Positions 19,656 through 28,648 of a DNA stretch of 64,000 bases are shown in pieces; positions within the stretch are counted from its first letter, which is position 1; each line of letters opens with the position of its first letter. The notes under the pieces were generated by a model that did no database searches, was not told where the DNA came from, and was given only the letters and a program-made list of their open reading frames with translations. This DNA is from a virus. The stretch is from positions 1 through 64,000 of the IMG/VR virus record IMGVR_UViG_3300008108_000039, one strand, 5' to 3'. The position numbers and the translations under genes were made by a program.

Positions 19656-19699
19656 ATCAATAAATATTGGTAAATACTAGAAACCAATATTTTTTTGTG

Positions 19700-19981
19700 T
19701 GCCCCCAACGAGAATCGAACTCGTACTCGCTTACTAAGCGAACAGGATTTTCTTACTACTATAGCTTTCGCTACCTTTTCAGTTTGTAGTCTGGACTATA
19801 CCTTCACCTTATTTTTCAACTTAGGTGTTCCGTGTCTAGTCTCTACACCTTCCCTTTCGGGCTTGGCTCGGTATTACCATTTTAAAGGCTTCACCGAATT
19901 TACGGAATTTTACTCTTTAGATTTCTCTAAAGGCACTCAAATAACTAAGTCCTGCGTGTCTACCTATTCCACCACAGGGGC
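19700..19981 (-). tRNA. trnL: tRNA-Leu(UAA) interrupted by a group I intron (exons 19947..19981 and 19700..19751)
   Basis: joined exons give GCCCCTG acceptor, CAGGA-CTTAAAA-TCCTG anticodon arm, long variable arm, TTCGA T-loop. Confidence 0.9.
19752..19946 (-). mobile_element. ORF-less group I intron (IC3-like, 195 nt)
   Basis: inserted after U34; P1 ACUUA/UGAGU with U.G wobble; P AAATTCGGTGAA, Q AATACCGAGC, R GTAGAGACTAGA, S AAGGTATAGTCC; ends in G. Confidence 0.88.
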
Positions 19982-19984
19982 ATT

Positions 19985-20104
19985 TGCTGTCTTTCCAGCA
20001 GTCAGAAGAACTTGAAACTTACCTACGCACCAGTGAGGTATTCTTCATGTTTGTTCACAGAGCCTAAGCAGTGTCTAGTATGCTTTTGGTTGTCGTGCGT
20101 ATCA
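19985..20104 (-). ncRNA. pseudoknotted ncRNA motif, copy 1
   Basis: aligned with 23114..23233 with compensatory stem changes. Confidence 0.75.
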
Positions 20105-20576: not shown

Positions 20577-21035
20577 TTATTTTACAAGAGCATCAGCAGC
20601 ATACGTCATCATTGGACATTCACCTTTATGTCTTACTTTATATCCCATACCTGTTACAATACCTACAGCACTTGCTAATGCTTGATTTGAACGGTATTTT
20701 GGATCAGGATTAAGATCAATATCAATCCAAGTTGCTACTATACTTGTTTCATTTTTAATTGCTTCTGCCACTTCAACAGAAAACCATACTTCATTTAATA
20801 AACGAACTGTATTTTCTTTTTCACGTAATGTATTAAATCTTGAATATAATACATGAGCTCCTTTTCCTGGGCGTGAAAGTCCAATTACAATAGCATATAT
20901 TGTTTCGTTTTTTCTGTTTTGTGAATCACATCCAATAAGTATTTCTACATTATCGTGTTGTAATATGTATTCTTTTATATATTGTATTAGCTCAATTTTT
21001 TGATTTGAAGCTAATGTTTTAAACATTTTTTCCAT
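20577..21035 (-). CDS. RNase H-fold protein (YkuK/DUF458-like)
   Basis: IGCDSQ, RLLNEVWFSVEVA, IDIDLN, YAAD. Confidence 0.8.
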   Translation of the reverse strand: MEKMFKTLASNQKIELIQYIKEYILQHDNVEILIGCDSQNRKNETIYAIVIGLSRPGKGAHVLYSRFNTLREKENTVRLLNEVWFSVEVAEAIKNETSIVATWIDIDLNPDPKYRSNQALASAVGIVTGMGYKVRHKGECPMMTYAADALVK

Positions 21036-21051
21036 AATTTAAAATTTAATA

Positions 21052-21119
21052 ACTGAGAAAATTTAACTGAGTTTGTTTTGATATTTGCAGAATCGAAGTA
21101 ACTCAACTATAACTACAGC
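21052..21119 (-). ncRNA. Y-RNA-like element 1
   Basis: stem-TAG-stem-GTTACTTCG...TTCT-stem consensus shared with 4 other elements; next to Ro60 gene. Confidence 0.65.
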
Positions 21120-21131
21120 ATTAATAAATTG

Positions 21132-21330
21132 ACCGAGATTTCTGGGGTGAGTCGTTCGGTAGCTCCGAACAGCACCAGGGAATTTATACTCGTCGTCAAG
21201 TGTTTTTTAAGCACCAGTACACGTCCTCTACCCTGATAACTCGAGGGAAGTTGGTAGATTGTATTTAAAATGAGCGGCATGTAGCCGCGGTATTTAATTA
21301 CGAAGTACCTCACCTAATCCTTACTACGGT
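21132..21330 (-). ncRNA. Y-RNA-like element 2 (large insert)
   Basis: ACCG-TAG...GGTGAG-GTACTTCG...CTCACC...TCT-CGGT. Confidence 0.65.
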
Positions 21331-21367
21331 AATATTTTAATCAAAGATCTATTTGTTATATATAAAT

Positions 21368-21397
21368 ATACGGGCGGCGTTTTAAACCGCCCATATA
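21368..21397 (-). terminator. hairpin terminator after Ro60 gene
   Basis: GGGCGG/CCGCCC stem followed by AT tract. Confidence 0.55.
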
Positions 21398-22939
21398 TTA
21401 TATTTCAATTGCTTCAATAGCTTTAATCAGTGCTTTTGGATCAATTTCTACTTTTTTAATCAGTTCATAAATGTCTGATGAATATCCGTAAATACCATAA
21501 ACTTTACTTCCTGGTTTAAACATTGTAGTTCCATATCCGCAAATATCTACTGAATATACATGCATATTTGCATATGCTGATTTTTCTATGTGATCTTTAC
21601 CTTGCATATCTGAAATTATAAACACACGATCATAGTTTTTTCCTATAGTTCTGAATATGCTTTCAAATGCTGTTCCATATCCTACTGATCCTTGTTGACC
21701 TAAGAATTGATTCTTAAGTGTATTTACACTATCAAGTGGGTTAAACTTAATTTGAGTAGTTCTATCAGCAAAATGATAAACATCGGCATTAATACCCTTA
21801 GCTAATGTAGCTGCAATTAATGCTGCTTTTGCAATAGCGGATTCTGAACCAGCATTTTTATTAGCTAATCTAATTCGTGAGGTCATTGAACCTGAACTAT
21901 CAAATATTACTGCTGTTTTTCCATGTGGAAATAATTCAGTTAAGTTTGGAATAGCTAACTCATAAGCTGTATTTAAAGCATTTATAAATGGTCTTGCTCC
22001 ACTTGCTCCAAATTCATCTAACATTATTTCTAATGCTAAATCAATTTGGTGAGGAAATACTAATGATTGCTTAATTAGAGCTTTATCAGTTAATAATTCA
22101 CAAGCACCTTTAATAACTTCGGATTTAGCTCCTGTTTTTAAGATGTTTCTTAAGTTACGTAGTAACGCTAAGTAACCAATCTTACGAGTTTCAATCAATT
22201 CAGCAAAGTTATCTTCTTTAGCTTCATTTAATACTGCTACAGCTTGTTCAGCAGTAATTTTTCCTGCTTTTACTTTAGCTGCTACTTCTTGACCTGCTTT
22301 AGTATTTTTATCTTCTACTGTGTTAAATTGCTTTAACTCACCTTTCATCAATTTAGCAAACACTGACTTCATCTTTTCAGAAGGTTTTGGGTGTACTAAA
22401 TTAATAATATCAACTAAAGATAAATCACGATTTTTAGCTTGATATTTTGCTAATTCATATTCATCAGCTGCTTCTAAAGCCGCTTTAAATCCTTTTTTGA
22501 TAGCGTTTGATAATTGTTTACCTGGGTTTCTAGCTTGATAGCATGCTGCTATTTCTAGCATATCATCTAAACGATAGATGACACCACCAGCATTTGCTTT
22601 TCTTTCTCTTTTAGAGAAGAATCTAGCACCTAAACTATCACCAGCTAATACTTTAGCTAATTCTACAGCACCAAAGTGTGTAACAGTTCTTTGACCCATA
22701 ACACTACGAGCATATACCATTGCTTTTGCAGCGAATACTTTATCAGTTTTAGCTACTTCAGCAATAACATTAGCAAAACGTTGTTCGCGTTCACCTAGTT
22801 TTTCATAATACTTATTATCCAAACCTGTAGCTAAAATTGCTACTAGTTCAGTTTTTGAATCATATTGATAACCATTTCCACCTTGGTGGTTTACAACTGT
22901 TTGTACAGTTGGTTTTGCTTTTGCATTAAAACGTGCCAT
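21398..22939 (-). CDS. rsr: Ro60/TROVE-domain RNA-binding protein with C-terminal vWA domain (Rsr-like)
   Basis: NHQGG, YELAKY, DIINLVHPKP, ALLRNLRNI, MIDAS DSSGSM, GYGT, ISDMQ. Confidence 0.92.
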   Translation of the reverse strand: MARFNAKAKPTVQTVVNHQGGNGYQYDSKTELVAILATGLDNKYYEKLGEREQRFANVIAEVAKTDKVFAAKAMVYARSVMGQRTVTHFGAVELAKVLAGDSLGARFFSKRERKANAGGVIYRLDDMLEIAACYQARNPGKQLSNAIKKGFKAALEAADEYELAKYQAKNRDLSLVDIINLVHPKPSEKMKSVFAKLMKGELKQFNTVEDKNTKAGQEVAAKVKAGKITAEQAVAVLNEAKEDNFAELIETRKIGYLALLRNLRNILKTGAKSEVIKGACELLTDKALIKQSLVFPHQIDLALEIMLDEFGASGARPFINALNTAYELAIPNLTELFPHGKTAVIFDSSGSMTSRIRLANKNAGSESAIAKAALIAATLAKGINADVYHFADRTTQIKFNPLDSVNTLKNQFLGQQGSVGYGTAFESIFRTIGKNYDRVFIISDMQGKDHIEKSAYANMHVYSVDICGYGTTMFKPGSKVYGIYGYSSDIYELIKKVEIDPKALIKAIEAIEI

Positions 22940-23026
22940 TTTACTACTAATTTAATTGTTAGAGAATATTAATTGCTTTTTACTTAATAAATGTAAGACT
23001 ATCTTTTTTGACAACCAAACTTTTTG

Positions 23027-23108
23027 TGCCCAGAGAGAGACTCGAACTCTCACGCCTTTCGGCACCAGTTTCTAAAACTGGCGTGTACTGCCATTTCACC
23101 ACCTGGGC
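23027..23108 (-). tRNA. tRNA-Leu(UAG)
   Basis: cloverleaf, CCAGT-TTTAGAA-ACTGG, long variable arm. Confidence 0.92.
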
Positions 23109-23113
23109 ATAGA

Positions 23114-23233
23114 GTGGGCCTTTCCCCACGGTCAAACAAGCTTGAAATTTACCTACGCACAGTGAGGTACTTGTTGTGATCATTCACAGAGCCTAACCCT
23201 TTACTAGTATAGTTTCGGTTGTCGTGCGTGTCA
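23114..23233 (-). ncRNA. pseudoknotted ncRNA motif, copy 2
   Basis: see copy 1. Confidence 0.75.
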
Positions 23234-23238
23234 TGCTG

Positions 23239-23334
23239 TAGTCAGGACAGGATTCGAACCTGCAGTGTAGGACTTATTTTTTTTTGCCTCTATCCGTTAC
23301 GGAACACCCTTTAGCCAATTTGGGACACCTGACT
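23239..23334 (-). ncRNA. tRNA-like element with AGTCAGG/CCTGACT acceptor and no canonical anticodon arm
   Basis: D-arm CCC..GGG, GCAGG-TTCGAAT-CCTGT T-arm. Confidence 0.65.
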
Positions 23335-23337
23335 GTT

Positions 23338-23583
23338 TTATAAGCCATCTTCCCAACGCCCTAAAACTAGTTGAGGAATTATTCCGGTATTCTCTTTCTC
23401 AAATAAACTTTCATCAAATTTAAAATCAACAACTATTTTTTCATCGCTTACCCAATTTTTACCAAAATCTTCAATAGTTAATTCGGCACCATATTTAACT
23501 AACAATGCTTTTAACTCATTATAAAATAATTGTTGCTTTTCAACAGTTGAATTATATTGCTTTTCCTTGTTCATATTATACAA
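23338..23583 (-). CDS. hypothetical protein
   Basis: 81 aa AT-rich ORF inside RNA island. Confidence 0.6.
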   Translation of the reverse strand: MYNMNKEKQYNSTVEKQQLFYNELKALLVKYGAELTIEDFGKNWVSDEKIVVDFKFDESLFEKENTGIIPQLVLGRWEDGL

Positions 23584-23625
23584 ATTAGTGCTATTATAGC
23601 CATTGTTTTTAGTTTTTATTTTTCG

Positions 23626-23728
23626 TAGTCTTTATATAAACGTAGGGTTGCAACCCCTAACTGCCTAAGTGTCATACACCTCCTGCTTGGACATTTATAT
23701 TGCGTCTAACCAATTTCGCCACCTGACT
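23626..23728 (-). ncRNA. second AGTCAGG tRNA-like element, T-arm missing
   Basis: AGTCAGG-TG-GCG-AAATTGGTTAGA-CGC 5' half; ends ...GACTAC without T-arm. Confidence 0.5.
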
Positions 23729-23735
23729 ATCTTAG

Positions 23736-23807
23736 AAGCCTCGGAGGAACTCGAATCCCCAACGTTCTCCTTAGAAGGGAGACATTCTTCCATTGAATTA
23801 CGAGGCC
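23736..23807 (-). tRNA. tRNA-Arg(UCU)
   Basis: TCTCC-CTTCTAA-GGAGA. Confidence 0.9.
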
Positions 23808-23812
23808 AAATG

Positions 23813-23884
23813 AGCAGGTAGTCAGAATCGAACTGACATCTCGAGTTTGGAAGACTAGAGCACTAACCGTTGTGCTATACCTGC
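23813..23884 (-). tRNA. tRNA-Gly(UCC)
   Basis: CTAGT-CTTCCAA-ACTCG, U73. Confidence 0.88.
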
Positions 23885-23972
23885 AATTCAAAGACAAACC
23901 TCGGCCTTGTATACCGACTTGGAAACCCTTTAGCTAGCCACTAACACTGATTGTAGTCTATTTGTCTTTTTG

Positions 23973-24056
23973 AGCCGAGCAAGAGATTCGAACTCTCAGT
24001 GGACTTTCGTCGCCTGCTTACAAGGCAGGTGCAATCAACCATTATGCGAACTCGGC
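23973..24056 (-). tRNA. tRNA-Thr(UGU) with long variable arm
   Basis: GCCGAGT acceptor, CCTGC-CTTGTAA-GCAGG, GAC-GAAA-GTC extra arm. Confidence 0.85.
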
Positions 24057-24064
24057 ATTATTTG

Positions 24065-24133
24065 TAGCGTATACTAGTGTCGATCTAGTCTAAAATCGGA
24101 TATGAGCCAATTTTGGTCGCCGGACCATACGCC
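24065..24133 (-). tRNA. atypical tRNA with CAU anticodon
   Basis: GGCGTAT/ATACGCT acceptor, 4-nt D loop, 8-bp anticodon stem, T-loop ATCGACA. Confidence 0.55.
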
Positions 24134-24137
24134 AAGT

Positions 24138-24274
24138 AAAACACTGCTGGGATACCCGTCTCGTCCCAATCTTAACGGCTTTATTGAAGTTTTATGATGC
24201 ATCGGCCGAGGGTGATACTGCTTTTATTCTCATTCGGTTTGTCGACAACCAGCCTGAGAGTCAGTCAGTGTTTT
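24138..24274 (-). ncRNA. structured spacer RNA with predicted pseudoknots
   Basis: closing helix AAACACTG/CAGTGTTT; CCGT/ACGG crossed by GGGA/TCCC. Confidence 0.5.
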
Positions 24275-24275
24275 G

Positions 24276-24349
24276 TTGCGGTGGGCTAGATTCGAACTAG
24301 CGATTTTGACCTTATGAGAGTCACGAGATGACCACTTCTCTACCCCGCA
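24276..24349 (-). tRNA. tRNA-Met(CAU), initiator-like body
   Basis: TGCGGGG acceptor, TGACT-CTCATAA-GGTCA. Confidence 0.8.
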
Positions 24350-24360
24350 ATATAAGTTTG

Positions 24361-24433
24361 TAGTGATGACGAGACTCGAACTCGTAACCTCGATGGTATA
24401 AGCATCTTGCGCTGACCATTGCGCCACATCACC
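24361..24433 (-). tRNA. tRNA-Ile(UAU)
   Basis: AGATG-CTTATAC-CATCG, A73. Confidence 0.85.
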
Positions 24434-24516
24434 AAATTTAAATAACTACTTACTCTATATAACCACCATCCACGTCATGCGCTGGTTGAGCTCAGCCAGC
24501 AAGTAGTTTGTTTAAG

Positions 24517-24590
24517 CCGGAACAACGGGATTCGAACCCGTACCGCACACCGTGACAAGGTGGCATTGTAAACCATTCAACCATGCTCCG
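24517..24590 (-). tRNA. tRNA-Asp(GUC)
   Basis: CACC-TTGTCAC-GGTG, G73. Confidence 0.88.
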
Positions 24591-24699
24591 GAATAAAGTA
24601 AGAAAGTTCATTACGTCTAACAAACCAGTGTTTCTACTTTGGCTCAATCGAATTATGATCACTTCACGATGTGTTGCATTTCGTCTACTTCTTACTTTG

Positions 24700-24771
24700 T
24701 ACTCCCGACGAGAATCGAACTCGCATTTTCAGATCGAAAATCTGACATCCTAACCATTAGATGACAGGAGC
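24700..24771 (-). tRNA. tRNA-Glu(UUC)
   Basis: TCAGA-TTTTCGA-TCTGA. Confidence 0.9.
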
Positions 24772-24775
24772 GTAA

Positions 24776-24884
24776 TGATGAAAGAATATTGGTACAGTTT
24801 CAGCCGGAATTGAACCGGAAAGTTTAAACCAAAATTAAATGCCCACCATGGGCGCGAAGTAACTGTGGTCCTTACTATTCATCA
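24776..24884 (-). ncRNA. Y-RNA-like element 3 with degenerate tRNA-Gln-like insert
   Basis: TGATGAA-TAG..ACAGTTACTTCG..AACTGT..TTCT-TTCATCA; D-, UUG anticodon- and T-like hairpins inside. Confidence 0.7.
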
Positions 24885-24887
24885 ATG

Positions 24888-24973
24888 TGGGAGTAACAGG
24901 AATCGAACCTGTACCTCTGCAGGCTGCGGTTTTACAGACCGTGGTGGCTAAAGCCAGTATCCACCTTACTCCC
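24888..24973 (-). tRNA. tRNA-Tyr(GUA)
   Basis: CGGT-CTGTAAA-ACCG, long variable arm. Confidence 0.88.
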
Positions 24974-24976
24974 AAT

Positions 24977-25108
24977 TTGTAGAAGAATGCTTAGAAAAGT
25001 TTGTTTTGGTTGTAAATGCGGGACTCAAACCCACGCGTTTTTCTTGGAAGGAAAATGATCTATCTCTGATCTAATTTACGAAGTAACTTTTCAATTTACT
25101 ATCTACAA
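24977..25108 (-). ncRNA. Y-RNA-like element 4 containing a complete tRNA-Gly(UCC)-like cloverleaf (25007..25080)
   Basis: TTGTAGA-TAG..GAAAAGTTACTTCG-[GTAAAT..GATC/GATC..TTTTC-CTTCCAA-GAAAA..GTGGG/CCCGC..ATTTAC-AA-CCA]-AACTTTTC..TTCT-TCTACAA. Confidence 0.72.
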
Positions 25109-25114
25109 TAATTT

Positions 25115-25192
25115 TGCTGAGAATGACTAGAAGAGTTGTTTTTCAATTTAGATTTACAAGTCTACGAAGTAACTCTATCTATAACTACAGCA
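25115..25192 (-). ncRNA. Y-RNA-like element 5
   Basis: TGCTG-TAG-TTATAGATAGAGTTACTTCG..AACTCTTCTAG..TTCT-CAGCA. Confidence 0.7.
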
Positions 25193-25200
25193 TTTGTATT

Positions 25201-25259
25201 TTCAAAGATCTTTTATTCTTATTTTTCTTATACATTAAATATACAATAAAAATTTTGCC
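25201..25259 (-). promoter_or_regulatory. internal promoter (GGCAAAAT..TATATT) plus boxA-like GATCTTTGAA for second half of RNA island
   Basis: motif at 25238-25259, boxA-like at 25201-25210. Confidence 0.6.
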
Positions 25260-25275
25260 AAAAGATATTTTTTTG

Positions 25276-25347
25276 CGCTTTCGGAGAATTACGATATCTC
25301 GGCCTCGAATTTAACAAATTCTTGCTCTGCCTCTGAGCTACGAAAGC
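25276..25347 (-). tRNA. tRNA-Asn(GUU)
   Basis: GAAT-TTGTTAA-ATTC; atypical T-loop. Confidence 0.8.
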
Positions 25348-25352
25348 GAATG

Positions 25353-25425
25353 TGGAGATACCAAGACTCGAACTTGGATTACCTGAGTATCAGTCAGGCG
25401 TGATAAACCATTCTACTATATCTCC
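25353..25425 (-). tRNA. tRNA-Ile(GAU)
   Basis: CCTGA-CTGATAC-TCAGG. Confidence 0.9.
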
Positions 25426-25486
25426 ATGGGGTCCGATACTAGCTTTCCATCACACTCGGACCAAGATGTGCGTCATACTAGGTTTG

Positions 25487-25572
25487 CGGAGAGCATTGTA
25501 TCGAAACAAATACCGTGTTAGGGTACCACTCGCTTAGCAGGCGGTGACAGCAACCTTACTGTTTTACTCTCC
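25487..25572 (-). tRNA. tRNA-Ser(GCU)
   Basis: GGAGAG acceptor, CGC-CTGCTAA-GCG, long variable arm, G73. Confidence 0.8.
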
Positions 25573-25634
25573 ATTTTGGCAGTTTTTAATTCATATCGAG
25601 GGAAGGAGATACCAGCTCCAAAACTCGGAAGGTG

Positions 25635-25706
25635 GGTGTAAGAACGGTATCGAACCGTCTTCCCTGGCTCCACAAACCAGTGCATCACCTTAATGCTTCA
25701 AACACC
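25635..25706 (-). tRNA. tRNA-His(GUG)
   Basis: G-1/C73, CTGGT-TTGTGGA-GCCAG. Confidence 0.85.
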
Positions 25707-25777
25707 ATGTAAAGAGAATCAGAACACACAATACGGATGAATTCTATGTTCCCGGACATTGCTGGTAATTCTCTCTG

Positions 25778-25861
25778 TGGAGAGTGACGGACTCGAACCC
25801 CCACGCCGTGTTACCGACTTCACTGTTTTCAAGACAGCTAACTACTCCTTTAGGACTCTCC
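25778..25861 (-). tRNA. tRNA-Ser(UGA), atypical D-arm
   Basis: GCTGT-CTTGAAA-ACAGT, long variable arm. Confidence 0.75.
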
Positions 25862-25946
25862 TTATTAAACATATCACCTGTTCTACGCACATTTTTACTT
25901 TAGTTTATATCAGCTAAAGTGCCGTGCCAGCTACGAACTATGTTTG

Positions 25947-26017
25947 ATGCCACAGAAGGGGTCGAACCTTCAACAAGAGAGCCAAAATCTCTTATGTTAC
26001 CATTACACTATGTGGCA
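25947..26017 (-). tRNA. tRNA-Gln(UUG)
   Basis: U1-A72, AGAGA-TTTTGGC-TCTCT. Confidence 0.9.
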
Positions 26018-26025
26018 GTGTGTTG

Positions 26026-26097
26026 AGCAGCAAAAGAATTTCGAAATCTCAACCTTCACATTGGCAATGTGACGCTCTGCCTTTGAGCTATTGCTGC
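26026..26097 (-). tRNA. tRNA-Gly(GCC)
   Basis: TCACA-TTGCCAA-TGTGA. Confidence 0.88.
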
Positions 26098-26103
26098 TTA
26101 TTG

Positions 26104-26175
26104 TAGAAGATGGGAATTTTGAAATCCCGACCCTCGCCATGTAAGGGCGATGCTCTGCCTCTGAGCTAATCTTCT
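26104..26175 (-). tRNA. tRNA-Val(UAC)
   Basis: TCGCC-CTTACAT-GGCGA. Confidence 0.88.
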
Positions 26176-26258
26176 AGATGTCAGCTGTTTAAGGTACAGC
26201 TGCGACTCAAACCTGAAGGTTAGTTATATATTGGAAACCTACCTACAATCTACCGGCG

Positions 26259-26331
26259 TGGAGAAGGTGGAACTCGAATCCACAACCTCATGCTTGCAAA
26301 GCACGTGCTCATCCACTAGAGCTTCATCCCC
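26259..26331 (-). tRNA. tRNA-Ala(UGC)
   Basis: G3.U70, CGTGC-TTTGCAA-GCATG. Confidence 0.9.
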
Positions 26332-26337
26332 ATTGTG

Positions 26338-26412
26338 TCGGGTAGAGAGGACTCGAACCTCCACGATGCCTTCGCCCCAAACGAAGTGACCTAGCCATTG
26401 GTCCACTACCCG
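26338..26412 (-). tRNA. tRNA-Pro(UGG)
   Basis: CGGGTAG acceptor, CTTCG-TTTGGGG-CGAAG. Confidence 0.9.
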
Positions 26413-26428
26413 AAATATTATTCTACCG

Positions 26429-26498
26429 AGGTTAAGGTGAGAATTGAACTCACTCCGTAGATTTTGCAGATCTACCGGCCGCCACGACCAACTTAACC
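26429..26498 (-). tRNA. tRNA-Cys(GCA)
   Basis: TAGAT-CTGCAAA-ATCTA, U73. Confidence 0.82.
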
Positions 26499-26505
26499 TT
26501 ATTCG

Positions 26506-26578
26506 TACTCCCGGACTGACTCGAACAGTCATTACTAGATCCGTAGTCTAGAGTTCTAATCCATTGAACTACAGGAGC
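26506..26578 (-). tRNA. tRNA-Arg(ACG)
   Basis: CTAGA-CTACGGA-TCTAG. Confidence 0.9.
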
Positions 26579-26588
26579 ATATAACTTG

Positions 26589-26660
26589 CACGCACGTAAG
26601 GACTCGAACCTTCATTTTCGCTTTTGGAGAGCGACGTTCTACCAATTGAACTACGCGCGC
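26589..26660 (-). tRNA. tRNA-Trp(CCA)
   Basis: TCGCT-CTCCAAA-AGCGA. Confidence 0.9.
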
Positions 26661-26675
26661 GTTTTTATCAATATG

Positions 26676-27113
26676 TCAAAGATCCTTTAGATAATCTTGT
26701 ATAGTTATATTTTGTTCTTTTTCTAAGTAGTGAAACTCAGAATGACAATTTCTACACAAAGTAATACATTTTTCTATTTCATTCCAAAATTTTTCTTTAC
26801 CTAAATAATAATTACTACTAATATCAAACTTTTTGTTTTTAGGATCTAAATGATGAAAATCTAAAATATACCATCTTTTATCTCCACATTTAGAACAAGT
26901 ACATGTTTTTTTATATTCAACAAAAATGTTTTTCTTTTTCTTAGTTACACTTTTATTTTTTTCTAATTGTATTTCTCTGTTTTCGTAATACCAATCTAAA
27001 TGTTGTTTTTTAGTACATTCACGACAGGCTTTTTGTTTACCATCACTTTGTATTTTATTATTATTAAATTCACTCAGTTCTTTTTGTTGTTTGCATTTAT
27101 TACATATTTTCAT
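26676..27113 (-). CDS. HNH endonuclease inserted in tRNA array
   Basis: CNKC..CREC Zn site; CSKCG..LDFHHLDP..KC..LCRNCH. Confidence 0.88.
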   Translation of the reverse strand: MKICNKCKQQKELSEFNNNKIQSDGKQKACRECTKKQHLDWYYENREIQLEKNKSVTKKKKNIFVEYKKTCTCSKCGDKRWYILDFHHLDPKNKKFDISSNYYLGKEKFWNEIEKCITLCRNCHSEFHYLEKEQNITIQDYLKDL

Positions 27114-27176
27114 AATTATTGTTTATAATAAATATATAGCTTTTAATAAATATTACAAATTAAAATACATTTTTTG

Positions 27177-27248
27177 TGCCCCCTACCGGTAACGATCCGA
27201 TCCTGGTATATTAAAAGTATACTGCTTACACCTGTTTGCTAAGAGGGC
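27177..27248 (-). tRNA. tRNA-Lys(UUU)
   Basis: GTATA-CTTTTAA-TATAC; atypical T-loop. Confidence 0.82.
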
Positions 27249-27279
27249 ATTTATTTTGTTCCCTCTTGCTTCAGAGGGA

Positions 27280-27315
27280 CTACTTATGTTTTCGTTTAGT
27301 TGTCTTTCGTTTCAT
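27280..27315 (-). CDS. putative 11-aa Lys/Arg-rich mini-ORF (MKRKTTKRKHK)
   Basis: ATG in A-rich context, TAG, then TCCCTCT/AGAGGGA hairpin, directly upstream of tRNA-Lys. Confidence 0.4.
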   Translation of the reverse strand: MKRKTTKRKHK

Positions 27316-27331
27316 TTTCTTATAGTTTGTG

Positions 27332-27404
27332 TGGTACCCCTCGGTTCCGACCCGAGTCCTGAAGATTTTCAGTCTTCCGCTTCTACCAAGTTAGCTTGAG
27401 CACC
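27332..27404 (-). tRNA. tRNA-Phe(GAA), first gene of the array
   Basis: GAAGA-CTGAAAA-TCTTC. Confidence 0.88.
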
Positions 27405-27407
27405 ATT

Positions 27408-27440
27408 AAAAAAGCCCTGATCTTTTGAACCAGGGCTTTG
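27408..27440 (-). terminator. intrinsic terminator (attenuator) immediately upstream of tRNA array
   Basis: AAAGCCCTGG-TTCAAAAGA-TCAGGGCTTTTTT. Confidence 0.8.
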
Positions 27441-27459
27441 TAATTTTGTTTATATATTT

Positions 27460-27600
27460 TTAAACATCTATATTACATTGCCCGGGTATACTAGGTTTGC
27501 CTTGCACATCCGTATTAATCGAATTAAAGCAATACCCTAGCGCTAACGTACTTCTACGTTCGTTTTGCCATGTTATTGTATGTAATATGTTTGTTTTCAT
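27460..27600 (-). CDS. putative attenuator leader peptide (46 aa, all 20 amino acids)
   Basis: MKTNILHTITWQNERRSTLALGYCFNSINTDVQGKPSIPGQCNIDV*; ATATTTAT motif at 27612-27619; stop ~20 nt before terminator. Confidence 0.65.
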   Translation of the reverse strand: MKTNILHTITWQNERRSTLALGYCFNSINTDVQGKPSIPGQCNIDV

Positions 27601-27652
27601 TTGTTGCGTCTATAAATATATACAAATCTTAATTCCCGATAAATATACTAAC

Positions 27653-27871
27653 TTACTTTGCCATCTCCAAAACTACTTCTACTATTTTTGATTCGCTTGC
27701 TGCTTTTACTTCAAAATTCTGTTCTGATCTTTCTGTCAGATGTTTTGTTATAGTAGCTTCTGCTTCAGTTACTGACATTGCGTCTACTAAGTAATTTGAA
27801 CTGTGTTTTTTTAATTTACCGTTTTCGTCTTCTACAGTAAATTGTACTTTTACATTAAAAAATTGTGCCAT
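27653..27871 (-). CDS. DUF4494-like protein (Bacteroidota-associated)
   Basis: ENGKLKK...YLVDAMSVTEAEA...ESKIVEV pattern. Confidence 0.75.
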   Translation of the reverse strand: MAQFFNVKVQFTVEDENGKLKKHSSNYLVDAMSVTEAEATITKHLTERSEQNFEVKAASESKIVEVVLEMAK

Positions 27872-27873
27872 AA

Positions 27874-28107
27874 TTATTGTTGTTTATATGTTTCGTTGTA
27901 GTATTGTTCTGCTTCTGATGAAAACCTATATGGTGACAAGGCAAGTGCAGCTTTTTTTATTTGCTCCTCAAACATTTGATTGGCTTGTTTAAGAATGTCG
28001 TGATGTTTTACAGCATATTCTCCTAAACTTAATTCCTTACTTTCTAATTGAATCAAAAGTTTGCGGTGTTCTTTAGCATACCAATCTACTGCTGTCTGTT
28101 GTATCAT
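27874..28107 (-). CDS. hypothetical phage protein (QTAVDW...EQYYNETY family)
   Basis: 77 aa. Confidence 0.7.
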   Translation of the reverse strand: MIQQTAVDWYAKEHRKLLIQLESKELSLGEYAVKHHDILKQANQMFEEQIKKAALALSPYRFSSEAEQYYNETYKQQ

Positions 28108-28316
28108 TATTTACAATATTTTAATAGTGCGTTAAAGTTTATGAATCCGATTTCTTGTGCGTGTTCCATTGAAAATGTATGTCTTTGTACATCAAGACCT
28201 TTTTCTATAACAACATGAACCATTGAAGAAAAATAATTTACTTCAATTGAAGTGACATGGTGTGTACCAGATAAATTCATACCCCAACATATAGATTTTT
28301 TTGTTTGTTGTATCAT
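28107..28316 (-). CDS. hypothetical protein
   Basis: 69 aa. Confidence 0.6.
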   Translation of the reverse strand: MIQQTKKSICWGMNLSGTHHVTSIEVNYFSSMVHVVIEKGLDVQRHTFSMEHAQEIGFINFNALLKYCK

Positions 28317-28648
28317 AGGTTTACTCCATGTGTCTTTTTCAATATCATATTCGCCTTGTAGTCATATAGGTATGGTCTGTATTTATAGAGTTTATTTGCA
28401 AATTGTGTTCTTGTTTTCATATCTTCATATGATTCATCTTCCATTCTACGTGGAGGACAACTCATAAAATAATCAATATCATCATTGGTTATTTTTTCTT
28501 GATTGGCAAACATCATCATTTTGGTAAATCCAAGAGAACCAATCATAGGCATTCCTGCTCTATAAGCTTCTACAATCTCTTTTGGTAGTTTAAATTCATT
28601 AAATTTTTGTGCTAATTCTGGTCTATTTAACATATTTTTTATTTGCAT
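28313..28648 (-). CDS. hypothetical protein
   Basis: 111 aa; promoter motif at 28651-28670. Confidence 0.7.
   Translation of the reverse strand: MQIKNMLNRPELAQKFNEFKLPKEIVEAYRAGMPMIGSLGFTKMMMFANQEKITNDDIDYFMSCPPRRMEDESYEDMKTRTQFANKLYKYRPYLYDYKANMILKKTHGVNL

Follow-up and report, generated by a model that had tools for sequence, protein, structure and literature searches.

We describe a putative ribosome-mediated attenuator located immediately upstream of the transfer RNA (tRNA) gene array of an uncultured phage, whose leader open reading frame (ORF) holds codons for all 20 amino acids. The element lies in the window, i.e. the whole stretch of 64,000 nt analysed here, corresponding to positions 1 to 64,000 of the IMG/VR virus record IMGVR_UViG_3300008108_000039. 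It consists of a promoter motif, a leader ORF, a set of alternative RNA pairings and an intrinsic terminator placed just ahead of tRNA-Phe(GAA), the first gene of the array. A first-pass annotation of the window had already proposed an attenuator at this site. When all the attenuator readings are pooled, we consider it likely that this element gates the tRNA array, and the tRNAs would then probably be made only while ribosomes decode slowly. We also lean slightly towards the view that the full codon coverage of the leader is a selected property by which such an attenuator would sense decoding.

The source genome is a single contig of 167,479 bp with a GC content of 29.9%, of which the window represents the first 64 kb, and its minus strand carries nearly all the genes. 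As the DNA polymerase shares only 34% identity with the nearest record, that of Microcystis phage Mel-JY01, the genome belongs to a distant, uncultured, T4-like phage. A search of public phage records for relatives of the leader locus returned none, tRNA-Trp alone giving a match. The window was compared with metagenomic phage lineages, which are indicated by L-numbers (L001, L002 and so on). The DNA set comprised 21 non-redundant full-length leaders, together with L023, which is truncated at its 5' end, and the further divergent L035; the distant leaders were gathered by a search anchored on tRNA-Phe. All coordinates of the leader locus, promoter, terminator and tRNAs refer to the minus strand of the window and are collected in Table 1.

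Architecture and conservation of the leader module

At least 22 metagenomic phage lineages carry the leader module at the head of the tRNA array, and its components follow a fixed order there: the ORF, an AT-rich spacer, a GC-rich hairpin with a T-run, tRNA-Phe and then the tRNAs for Lys, Trp, Arg, Cys, Pro and others. In L035 another tRNA is inserted ahead of tRNA-Phe. Three different contexts were found upstream of the module, namely a DUF4494 gene, a thymidylate-synthase neighbourhood and a neighbourhood with transfer-messenger RNA (tmRNA) and thioredoxin. Since the upstream gene varies between lineages, the leader and the array form the unit that is inherited jointly.

The promoter-type motif pointed out by the first-pass annotation proved to be a real recurrent element of this genome. 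The coding strand contains 28 copies of ATATTTATA, of which 27 are intergenic, and the opposite strand contains 6. Most coding-strand copies are located 12-33 nt ahead of an ATG and several stand immediately past a hairpin with a T-run. The leader starts 13-24 nt past the beginning of the motif, as other genes of the genome do, the distance being exactly 19 nt in 13 of 21 lineages, with five more at 13-24 nt; in three of the 21 (L029, L032 and L042) the motif is missing before the leader. In the relative L016 a copy sits directly ahead of the tmRNA gene, and the motif is therefore not a translation signal.

When the array of the window was scanned, no second exact copy of ATATTTATA was detected, the only matches being one-mismatch copies ahead of an inserted gene for an HNH endonuclease. 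These copies stand at 27135 and 27153, and the internal promoter that had been suggested at 25238 has no motif within one mismatch nearby. Relatives devoid of the HNH gene show a continuous array with no second promoter motif inside. In L010, L009, L018 and L002 the leader promoter is the sole copy for the whole array, whose transcription must hence pass through the hairpin. Whether the motif marks an early or a late class was not revealed by PHROG scans of the genes located behind it. A one-mismatch copy, ATATTTATC, was also observed at 27638-27646 (minus strand), 27 nt upstream of the leader promoter and in surroundings that are kept in the relatives; the two may represent tandem promoters.

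The leader ORF itself has the length and the translation that the first-pass annotation had assigned to it. Its frame is open in every lineage, with 2-8 stops in each of the two other frames, and codons 2-36 returned a ratio of nonsynonymous to synonymous substitution rates (dN/dS) of 0.42. Searches with the peptide retrieved 17 relatives from a large protein collection, to which a representative library added 18 of greater distance, all of 42-49 aa, and the leader family was aligned as 34 members within this range of length. Residues W11, Y23 and F25 never vary, and H7, C24 and P36 are almost as constant. PHROG and Pfam searches did not assign the peptide to any family. AlphaFold2, run on the 34-sequence alignment, returned no confident fold, with a predicted local distance difference test (pLDDT) value of 57 and a predicted template modelling (pTM) score of 0.18. 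Profile matches to proteins of 400-2300 aa were due to short repeated SBBP beta-propeller-type repeats and were judged spurious.

Past the ORF, the hairpin AAAGCCCTGG/TCAGGGCTTT and its T-run have the usual terminator form of this genome. The intrinsic terminator annotated as abutting tRNA-Phe was thus recovered, with a T-run ending 3 nt before the tRNA gene; a simple terminator scan had missed it because of the length of its loop. Across the relatives the terminator displays a GC-rich stem of 9-11 bp with energies from -12 to -20 kcal/mol. In 16 aligned leaders nine pairs of this stem, which is formed by segments C and D, are 100% paired, two of them being compensatory.

Near the end of the ORF, segment B holds the sequence CCCGGGC (codons 39-41), an in-ORF copy of the terminator 3' arm. 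When the genuine 3' arm was left out, the minimum free energy fold paired C with B in 13/13 close and 5/5 distant leaders. The B:C duplex showed a mean energy of -19.3 kcal/mol, as compared with -6.7 kcal/mol for shuffled B (P<=0.003 in 21/21 lineages), a stability similar to that of the terminator, and its outer stem was 94.6% paired. Changes in the terminator are accompanied by changes in the copy, which amounts to a three-way covariation. In L030 and L042 the terminator stem reads GTCCTGG/CCAGGAC and the ORF copy CCAGGAC, and in L040 an additional T-A pair in the stem goes with the copy CCAGGAT. Translation of the copy yields Pro-Gly-Gln in most lineages, with Thr-Gly-Leu or Ile-Gly-Leu elsewhere. 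In L022, L023, L040 and L042 the copy is placed in a second reading frame, where it encodes Asn-Gln-Asp, Asn-Gln-Gly or Arg-Gln-Gly. As its reading differs between lineages, the nucleotides of the copy, and not the peptide, are conserved. The pairing between the ORF end and the terminator 5' arm, originally noticed in the window, was therefore extended to all 21 lineages; the extra pairings proposed along with it, involving CTAGGGTATTG and GGGTAT/ATACCC, are not conserved in the relatives.

The position of the stop codon is also constrained. It is always found between B and C, even following frameshifts, and in the 21 lineages it falls 16-30 nt past the start of the copy and 23-34 nt ahead of the core 5' arm of the terminator. 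With this placement, a terminating ribosome would occupy B without touching the terminator. On the basis of the open frames, the fixed stop site and the dN/dS value, the ORF looks translated.

A further helix of 8 bp joins segment A with the inner part of B. It is 97.7% paired in 16 leaders, with a mean of -12.0 kcal/mol versus -7.4 kcal/mol for shuffles. Within the close family its covariation was not above shuffled controls; compensated changes were found in L039 (CGATACA/TGTATCG), L034 (AAATCAATA/TATTGATTT), L040 (14 bp), L042 and L014, and among the 21 lineages compared the pairing was not seen in L032. Segment A and the inner part of C are similar in sequence, each of them pairing with inner B. 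Two hairpins, P1 and P2, are formed within the ORF. P1 contains one compensatory pair, from A-U to G-C in L021 and L030, both changes being synonymous. The core stem of P2, TTGCTTT/AAGGCAA, carries wobble changes only, and its tip is lineage-specific yet paired.

Taken as predicted from the sequences, the A:B, B:C and C:D helices are the 1:2, 2:3 and 3:4 design of classical attenuators. The likeness to the trp attenuator is close: 1:2 corresponds to A:B, 2:3 to B:C and 3:4 to C:D with its U-run, and the ORF overlaps segment 1. Segments 1 and 3 are alike (ATATTACAT and ATTACA) because both pair with segment 2, as in trp. The trpL leader is 14 codons long, includes two Trp codons side by side and ends before segment 2, whereas the phage leader is of 46 codons, bears P1 and P2 between A and B and stops past B.

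Codon coverage of the leader

According to the first-pass annotation the leader contained all 20 amino acids, used both boxes of the split families and employed GC-ending codons that are rare in the genome, and these three statements were borne out. None of the 20 amino acids is missing from the first 36 codons. Leu, Ser, Arg, Ile and Gly are each represented by both of their boxes and internal Met alone is absent, so that 24 of 25 decoding boxes are covered. Of the 46 codons, eleven are rare in this AT-rich genome, each accounting for 2-17% of its synonymous family (ACG twice, GCG, GGG twice, TCG, GTG, GGC, CCC, CTA and TGC). The array in turn decodes all 20 amino acids, matching the amino acids and boxes of the leader, in which no codon runs occur.

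The probability of such coverage arising by chance was estimated from the codon usage of the genome, from windows of real genes and from composition models. The 20 amino acids are expected in 1.2% of cases in 46 codons, in 0.4% in 40 codons and in 0.07-0.19% in 36 codons; random ORFs with the base composition of the leader reached them within 36 codons in 0.19% of cases. For all 24 non-Met boxes in 46 codons the estimate was 2.8e-4, and 1.3e-4 in real-gene windows. Chance would thus not commonly produce full coverage, the values being about 1e-3 for the complete amino-acid set within 36 codons and about 3e-4 for the boxes. Among the 114 short ATG-ORFs of the genome, the leader was the only one with 20 amino acids.

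Coverage is also kept across the relatives. In 17/17 close DNA lineages the 20 amino acids have all been used by codon 36, i.e. upstream of B. All 25 boxes are covered in 11 of 21 lineages, and most others are short of one or two. Thirty-one of the 34 family members have the complete set of amino acids, as compared with 19 expected from column shuffling and 19.4 +/- 3.9 from a tree-based null with site-specific frequencies and a complete root.

The rearranged leaders provide what we regard as stronger evidence for kept coverage than these family counts. In L035 the leader is of 40 aa and its first 30 residues cannot be aligned, with W, F, Y, P, R and E relocated, and it still contains 20 amino acids and 24/25 boxes. 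L039 (39 aa) lacks P1 and retains all 20 amino acids, missing three boxes, and L034 (40 aa) has 19 amino acids and misses five boxes. Leaders poorly conserved in sequence in which coverage and hairpins are kept, which had been put forward as an expectation for related phages, were thus found in L035 and L039, and in L034 with 19 amino acids.

The closest known systems with respect to coverage are the multivalent leader-peptide attenuators of the E. coli branched-chain operons, ilvGMEDA, with a leader of 32 codons, and ilvBN. They share with the phage leader an ORF of a few dozen codons, the spreading of codons for several amino acids, the alternative antiterminator and terminator hairpins and a finished leader that favours termination. 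However, the ilv leaders contain runs of three codons, while in the phage leader the 20 amino acids occur once or a few times each. Moreover, the phage ORF crosses the 5' strand of the antiterminator, and the system is phage-encoded and would gate tRNAs instead of biosynthetic enzymes.

Proposed switch and competing explanations

In the mechanism that we propose, transcription would begin at ATATTTATA and the near-leaderless ORF would be translated as it emerges. Four segments would then compete, A pairing with B, B with C, and C with D, the latter comprising the 3' arm and the U-run. A ribosome proceeding without delay would reach B and the stop codon and keep B single-stranded, so that C:D could form and transcription would end 3 nt before tRNA-Phe. 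Conversely, if the leading ribosome were delayed earlier, or if a queue formed behind it, B would be free when C emerges, B:C would form and the polymerase would enter the tRNA genes. A feedback between decoding capacity and tRNA synthesis might thus be established. Since every amino acid and 24/25 boxes precede B, slow decoding of any codon class could open the gate. With slightly more doubt than conviction, we suggest that the leader may be a universal decoding sensor, in which any tRNA shortage, due to starvation, to codon-usage mismatch or to a tRNA-cleaving defence, would raise the whole replacement set.

The effect of ribosome position was modelled by equilibrium folding. With queued ribosomes, about 8 of 20 lineages gave the antiterminator for stalls up to about codon 34 and, after a sharp return, the terminator from codon 36. 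The idea that a stall at any codon would open the switch, as advanced by the first-pass annotation, gains support from these folds in some lineages alone, and there with queued ribosomes alone. Equilibrium folding neither proves nor excludes a kinetic switch, and in these models the state of the window leader when untranslated is uncertain.

Several results weigh against an attenuator that senses its full codon set. When one ribosome alone was placed on the leader, the antiterminator was reached just for stalls at codons 2-10, and this in part of the lineages; for all 36 codons to be sensed, ribosome queues or a steric block of A:B would be needed. In the window, B (CCCGGGC) bears a C x U mismatch and the terminator wins at every ribosome position, as it does in L024, L022, L019, L012, L025, L032 and L034. 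Because equilibrium folding never flips in these eight leaders, they would need a kinetic switch. Four close lineages show an uncompensated third-position change (GGA or GGT) in the copy. Each amino acid occurs once or a few times and codon runs are absent, which would make the leader a far weaker sensor than the classical ones, and Pro-36 lies too near B for sensing. The tests of completeness are supportive only, as relatedness and alignment shifts inflate both of them. Many peptide positions are conserved and each of them, including the invariant and nearly invariant ones, falls inside an RNA helix, so that the amino-acid coverage could partly be a by-product of structure; likewise, helices contain almost every rare G/C-ending codon, and structure may explain why these codons are conserved. 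Finally, the same tRNA-Phe occurs with no leader directly upstream in L031, L033/L038 and L041, and L003, which shares the upstream DUF4494 gene, is also devoid of such a leader. The module is therefore not universal.

Some of these observations are what would be expected if the attenuator were real and its coverage were not sensed. The switch would then report close coupling between ribosome and polymerase, a few slow codons or a nascent-peptide arrest motif, and the 20-amino-acid set would result from GC-rich stems, AT-rich loops and a conserved peptide. The confinement of the rare codons almost entirely to P1, P2 and B, the coincidence of the invariant residues with helices, the restriction of single-ribosome sensing to codons 2-10 and the lack of codon runs agree with this explanation, and so does the loss of E14, which was compensated in just 3 of 6 cases. 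We nevertheless regard it as unlikely. The coverage is kept when the positions of the residues are altered, as in L035 with its 20/20 amino acids and 24/25 boxes in 40 codons; 31 of 34 members are complete where about 19 would be expected; and base composition alone brings 20 amino acids into 36 codons in 0.19% of random ORFs.

A somewhat smaller probability was given to the locus being an ordinary small protein gene followed by a leaky constitutive terminator. RNase P would cut the read-through tRNAs, the hairpin would protect the 3' end of the mRNA and the pairings would have no regulatory role. Such a gene would be in keeping with a conserved peptide family having a dN/dS of 0.42 and invariant W, Y and F, with the occurrence of upstream genes that have no terminator of their own before that of the leader, with the abundance of terminators in the genome and with the equilibrium folds of the window, which always favour the terminator. 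On the other hand, the in-ORF copy of the terminator arm is kept in two frames and co-varies with the terminator, A:B also covaries and rare codons are retained at synonymous sites. In addition, the peptide has neither a confident fold nor a family, the module travels with the array and not with the neighbouring gene, and the improbable coverage would be left unexplained.

An RNA of the riboswitch type appears improbable. In such an RNA, A:B would close a three-way junction with P1 and P2, the binding of a ligand, a protein or a tRNA would select B:C or C:D, and the ORF would be secondary. The layout of the leader, with a closing helix, two hairpins and a 3' strand shared with the antiterminator, is that of many terminator-type riboswitches, and P1 and P2 are conserved with some covariation. 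In T-box riboswitches the status of a tRNA likewise sets the choice between terminator and antiterminator before translation-related genes; their tRNA-binding bulge contains UGG, a trinucleotide that is also present within the terminator 5' arm of the leader. However, T-boxes recognise uncharged tRNA by direct binding and do so without an ORF, whereas the phage switch is crossed by a conserved ORF, which stays open through indels and frameshifts everywhere, with the stop always between B and C. The module also persists in L039 and L034 despite the deletion of P1. A cmscan search of the region 22500-28500 against Rfam (E<=1) returned tRNAs and chance matches only, with no leader, riboswitch or T-box family.

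Least probable of all, and very improbable in our opinion, is a role of the long B:C helix in RNA processing or stability instead of a transcriptional switch, for instance as an RNase III-type site parting the leader mRNA from the tRNA precursor: B:C and its inner helices do form 14-19 irregular bp around the stop codon, and T7 and similar phages place such hairpins between genes, but B:C and a canonical terminator exclude each other, one of the strands of B:C is coding and would be unwound by each ribosome, and the three-way covariation ties it to the terminator.

The tRNA array, its surroundings and biological meaning

The features of the locus are listed in Table 1. The array counts 26 tRNAs. 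Behind tRNA-Phe lie 24 others, and a tRNA-Leu(UAA) gene interrupted by a group I intron is also present.

Table 1. Positions of the leader module and the tRNA array in the window.
Feature	Coordinates	Strand	Remarks
Promoter motif ATATTTATA	27611-27619	-	Recurrent in genome; 19 nt before leader ATG, counted from motif start
Leader ORF, 46 codons + stop	27460-27600	-	20 amino acids, 24/25 decoding boxes
Segment A, ATATTACAT, codons 5-7	27580-27588	-	Pairs with inner B; putative anti-antiterminator
Hairpin P1 in ORF, codons 14-19	27545-27560	-	97.9% paired cells
Hairpin P2 in ORF, codons 22-36	27494-27537	-	Core stem 100% paired
Segment B, CCCGGGC + ATGTAATAT, codons 39-44	27470-27486	-	Pairs with A or C
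Leader stop codon, between B and C	27460-27462	-	Geometry kept in 21 lineages
Segment C, ATTACAAAGCCCTGG, spacer end + terminator 5' arm	27430-27444	-	Folds onto B without 3' arm
Segment D, terminator 3' arm, then T-run	27420-27411	-	Pairs with C
Intrinsic terminator (hairpin 27439-27411, stem 27439-27430/27420-27411, T-run 27413-27408)	27408-27439	-	-16.9 kcal/mol, 9-nt loop, T-run
tRNA-Phe(GAA), first gene past terminator	27332-27404	-	Rfam RF00005, 41.6 bits
Rest of array, 24 tRNAs, interrupted by HNH gene	23026-27248	-	tRNA scan
HNH endonuclease gene within array	26676-27113	-	Between tRNA-Lys and tRNA-Trp

The tRNA-Phe(GAA) gene was missed by ARAGORN in the window and in most relatives, and the window copy was found by Rfam. 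In both the window and the relatives this tRNA has a non-standard T-loop, GGTCGGAACC. The tRNA-Leu(UAA) gene (19690-20020, minus strand) was not reported by ARAGORN either. Its group I intron (RF00028, 75 bits, 19957-19771) lies between U34 and A35, which is the classical site, occupied at the same place in cyanobacteria and plastids.

The HNH gene is absent from its position in relatives whose array is continuous (L001/L002, L009, L010 and L012 among them), and therefore looks like a homing-type insertion. A second mini-ORF, encoding the Lys/Arg-rich peptide MKRKTTKRKHK, was observed between tRNA-Phe and tRNA-Lys(UUU) (27259-27315, minus strand). It is followed by a hairpin, TCCCTCT/AGAGGGA, without a T-run, and the 3' arm of this hairpin shows complementarity to the 5' end of tRNA-Lys as well. 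In 12 other lineages the mini-ORF recurs in Lys/Arg-rich versions (MKRKITKRKR, MKTKMLKRKRK, MKHIKRKRK, MEMKRKRN and others), with the hairpin present in 11 of these.

A tmRNA was found near the tRNA array in three relatives (L016:1681-2063, L019:1985-2379 and L003:2351-2757). On the minus strand of the window, the region 21035-21369 shows a terminator and then an exact promoter motif at 21369, with 334 nt downstream that are free of ORFs; the motif may hence drive a non-coding RNA. A TROVE/Ro60-like gene (21398-22939) adjoins this region.

Phage tRNA genes are usually viewed as a fixed supplement to codon usage or as an escape from tRNA-cleaving defences, and to our knowledge almost nothing has been established on their regulation. 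A literature search found no account of leader peptides located before tRNA genes or arrays. Leader-peptide attenuation of a gene of the translation machinery does have a precedent in the pheM leader, which attenuates pheST, the phenylalanyl-tRNA synthetase operon; pheM, however, relies on a run of Phe codons to sense a single amino acid and controls a host protein-coding operon. If the attenuator proposed here does operate, phages would gauge the speed of decoding and adjust their supply of tRNAs, and the textbook attenuation of amino-acid and synthetase operons would extend to tRNA genes. It would also be the first leader sampling the whole genetic code, and the module could act as a compact natural sensor of translation stress.

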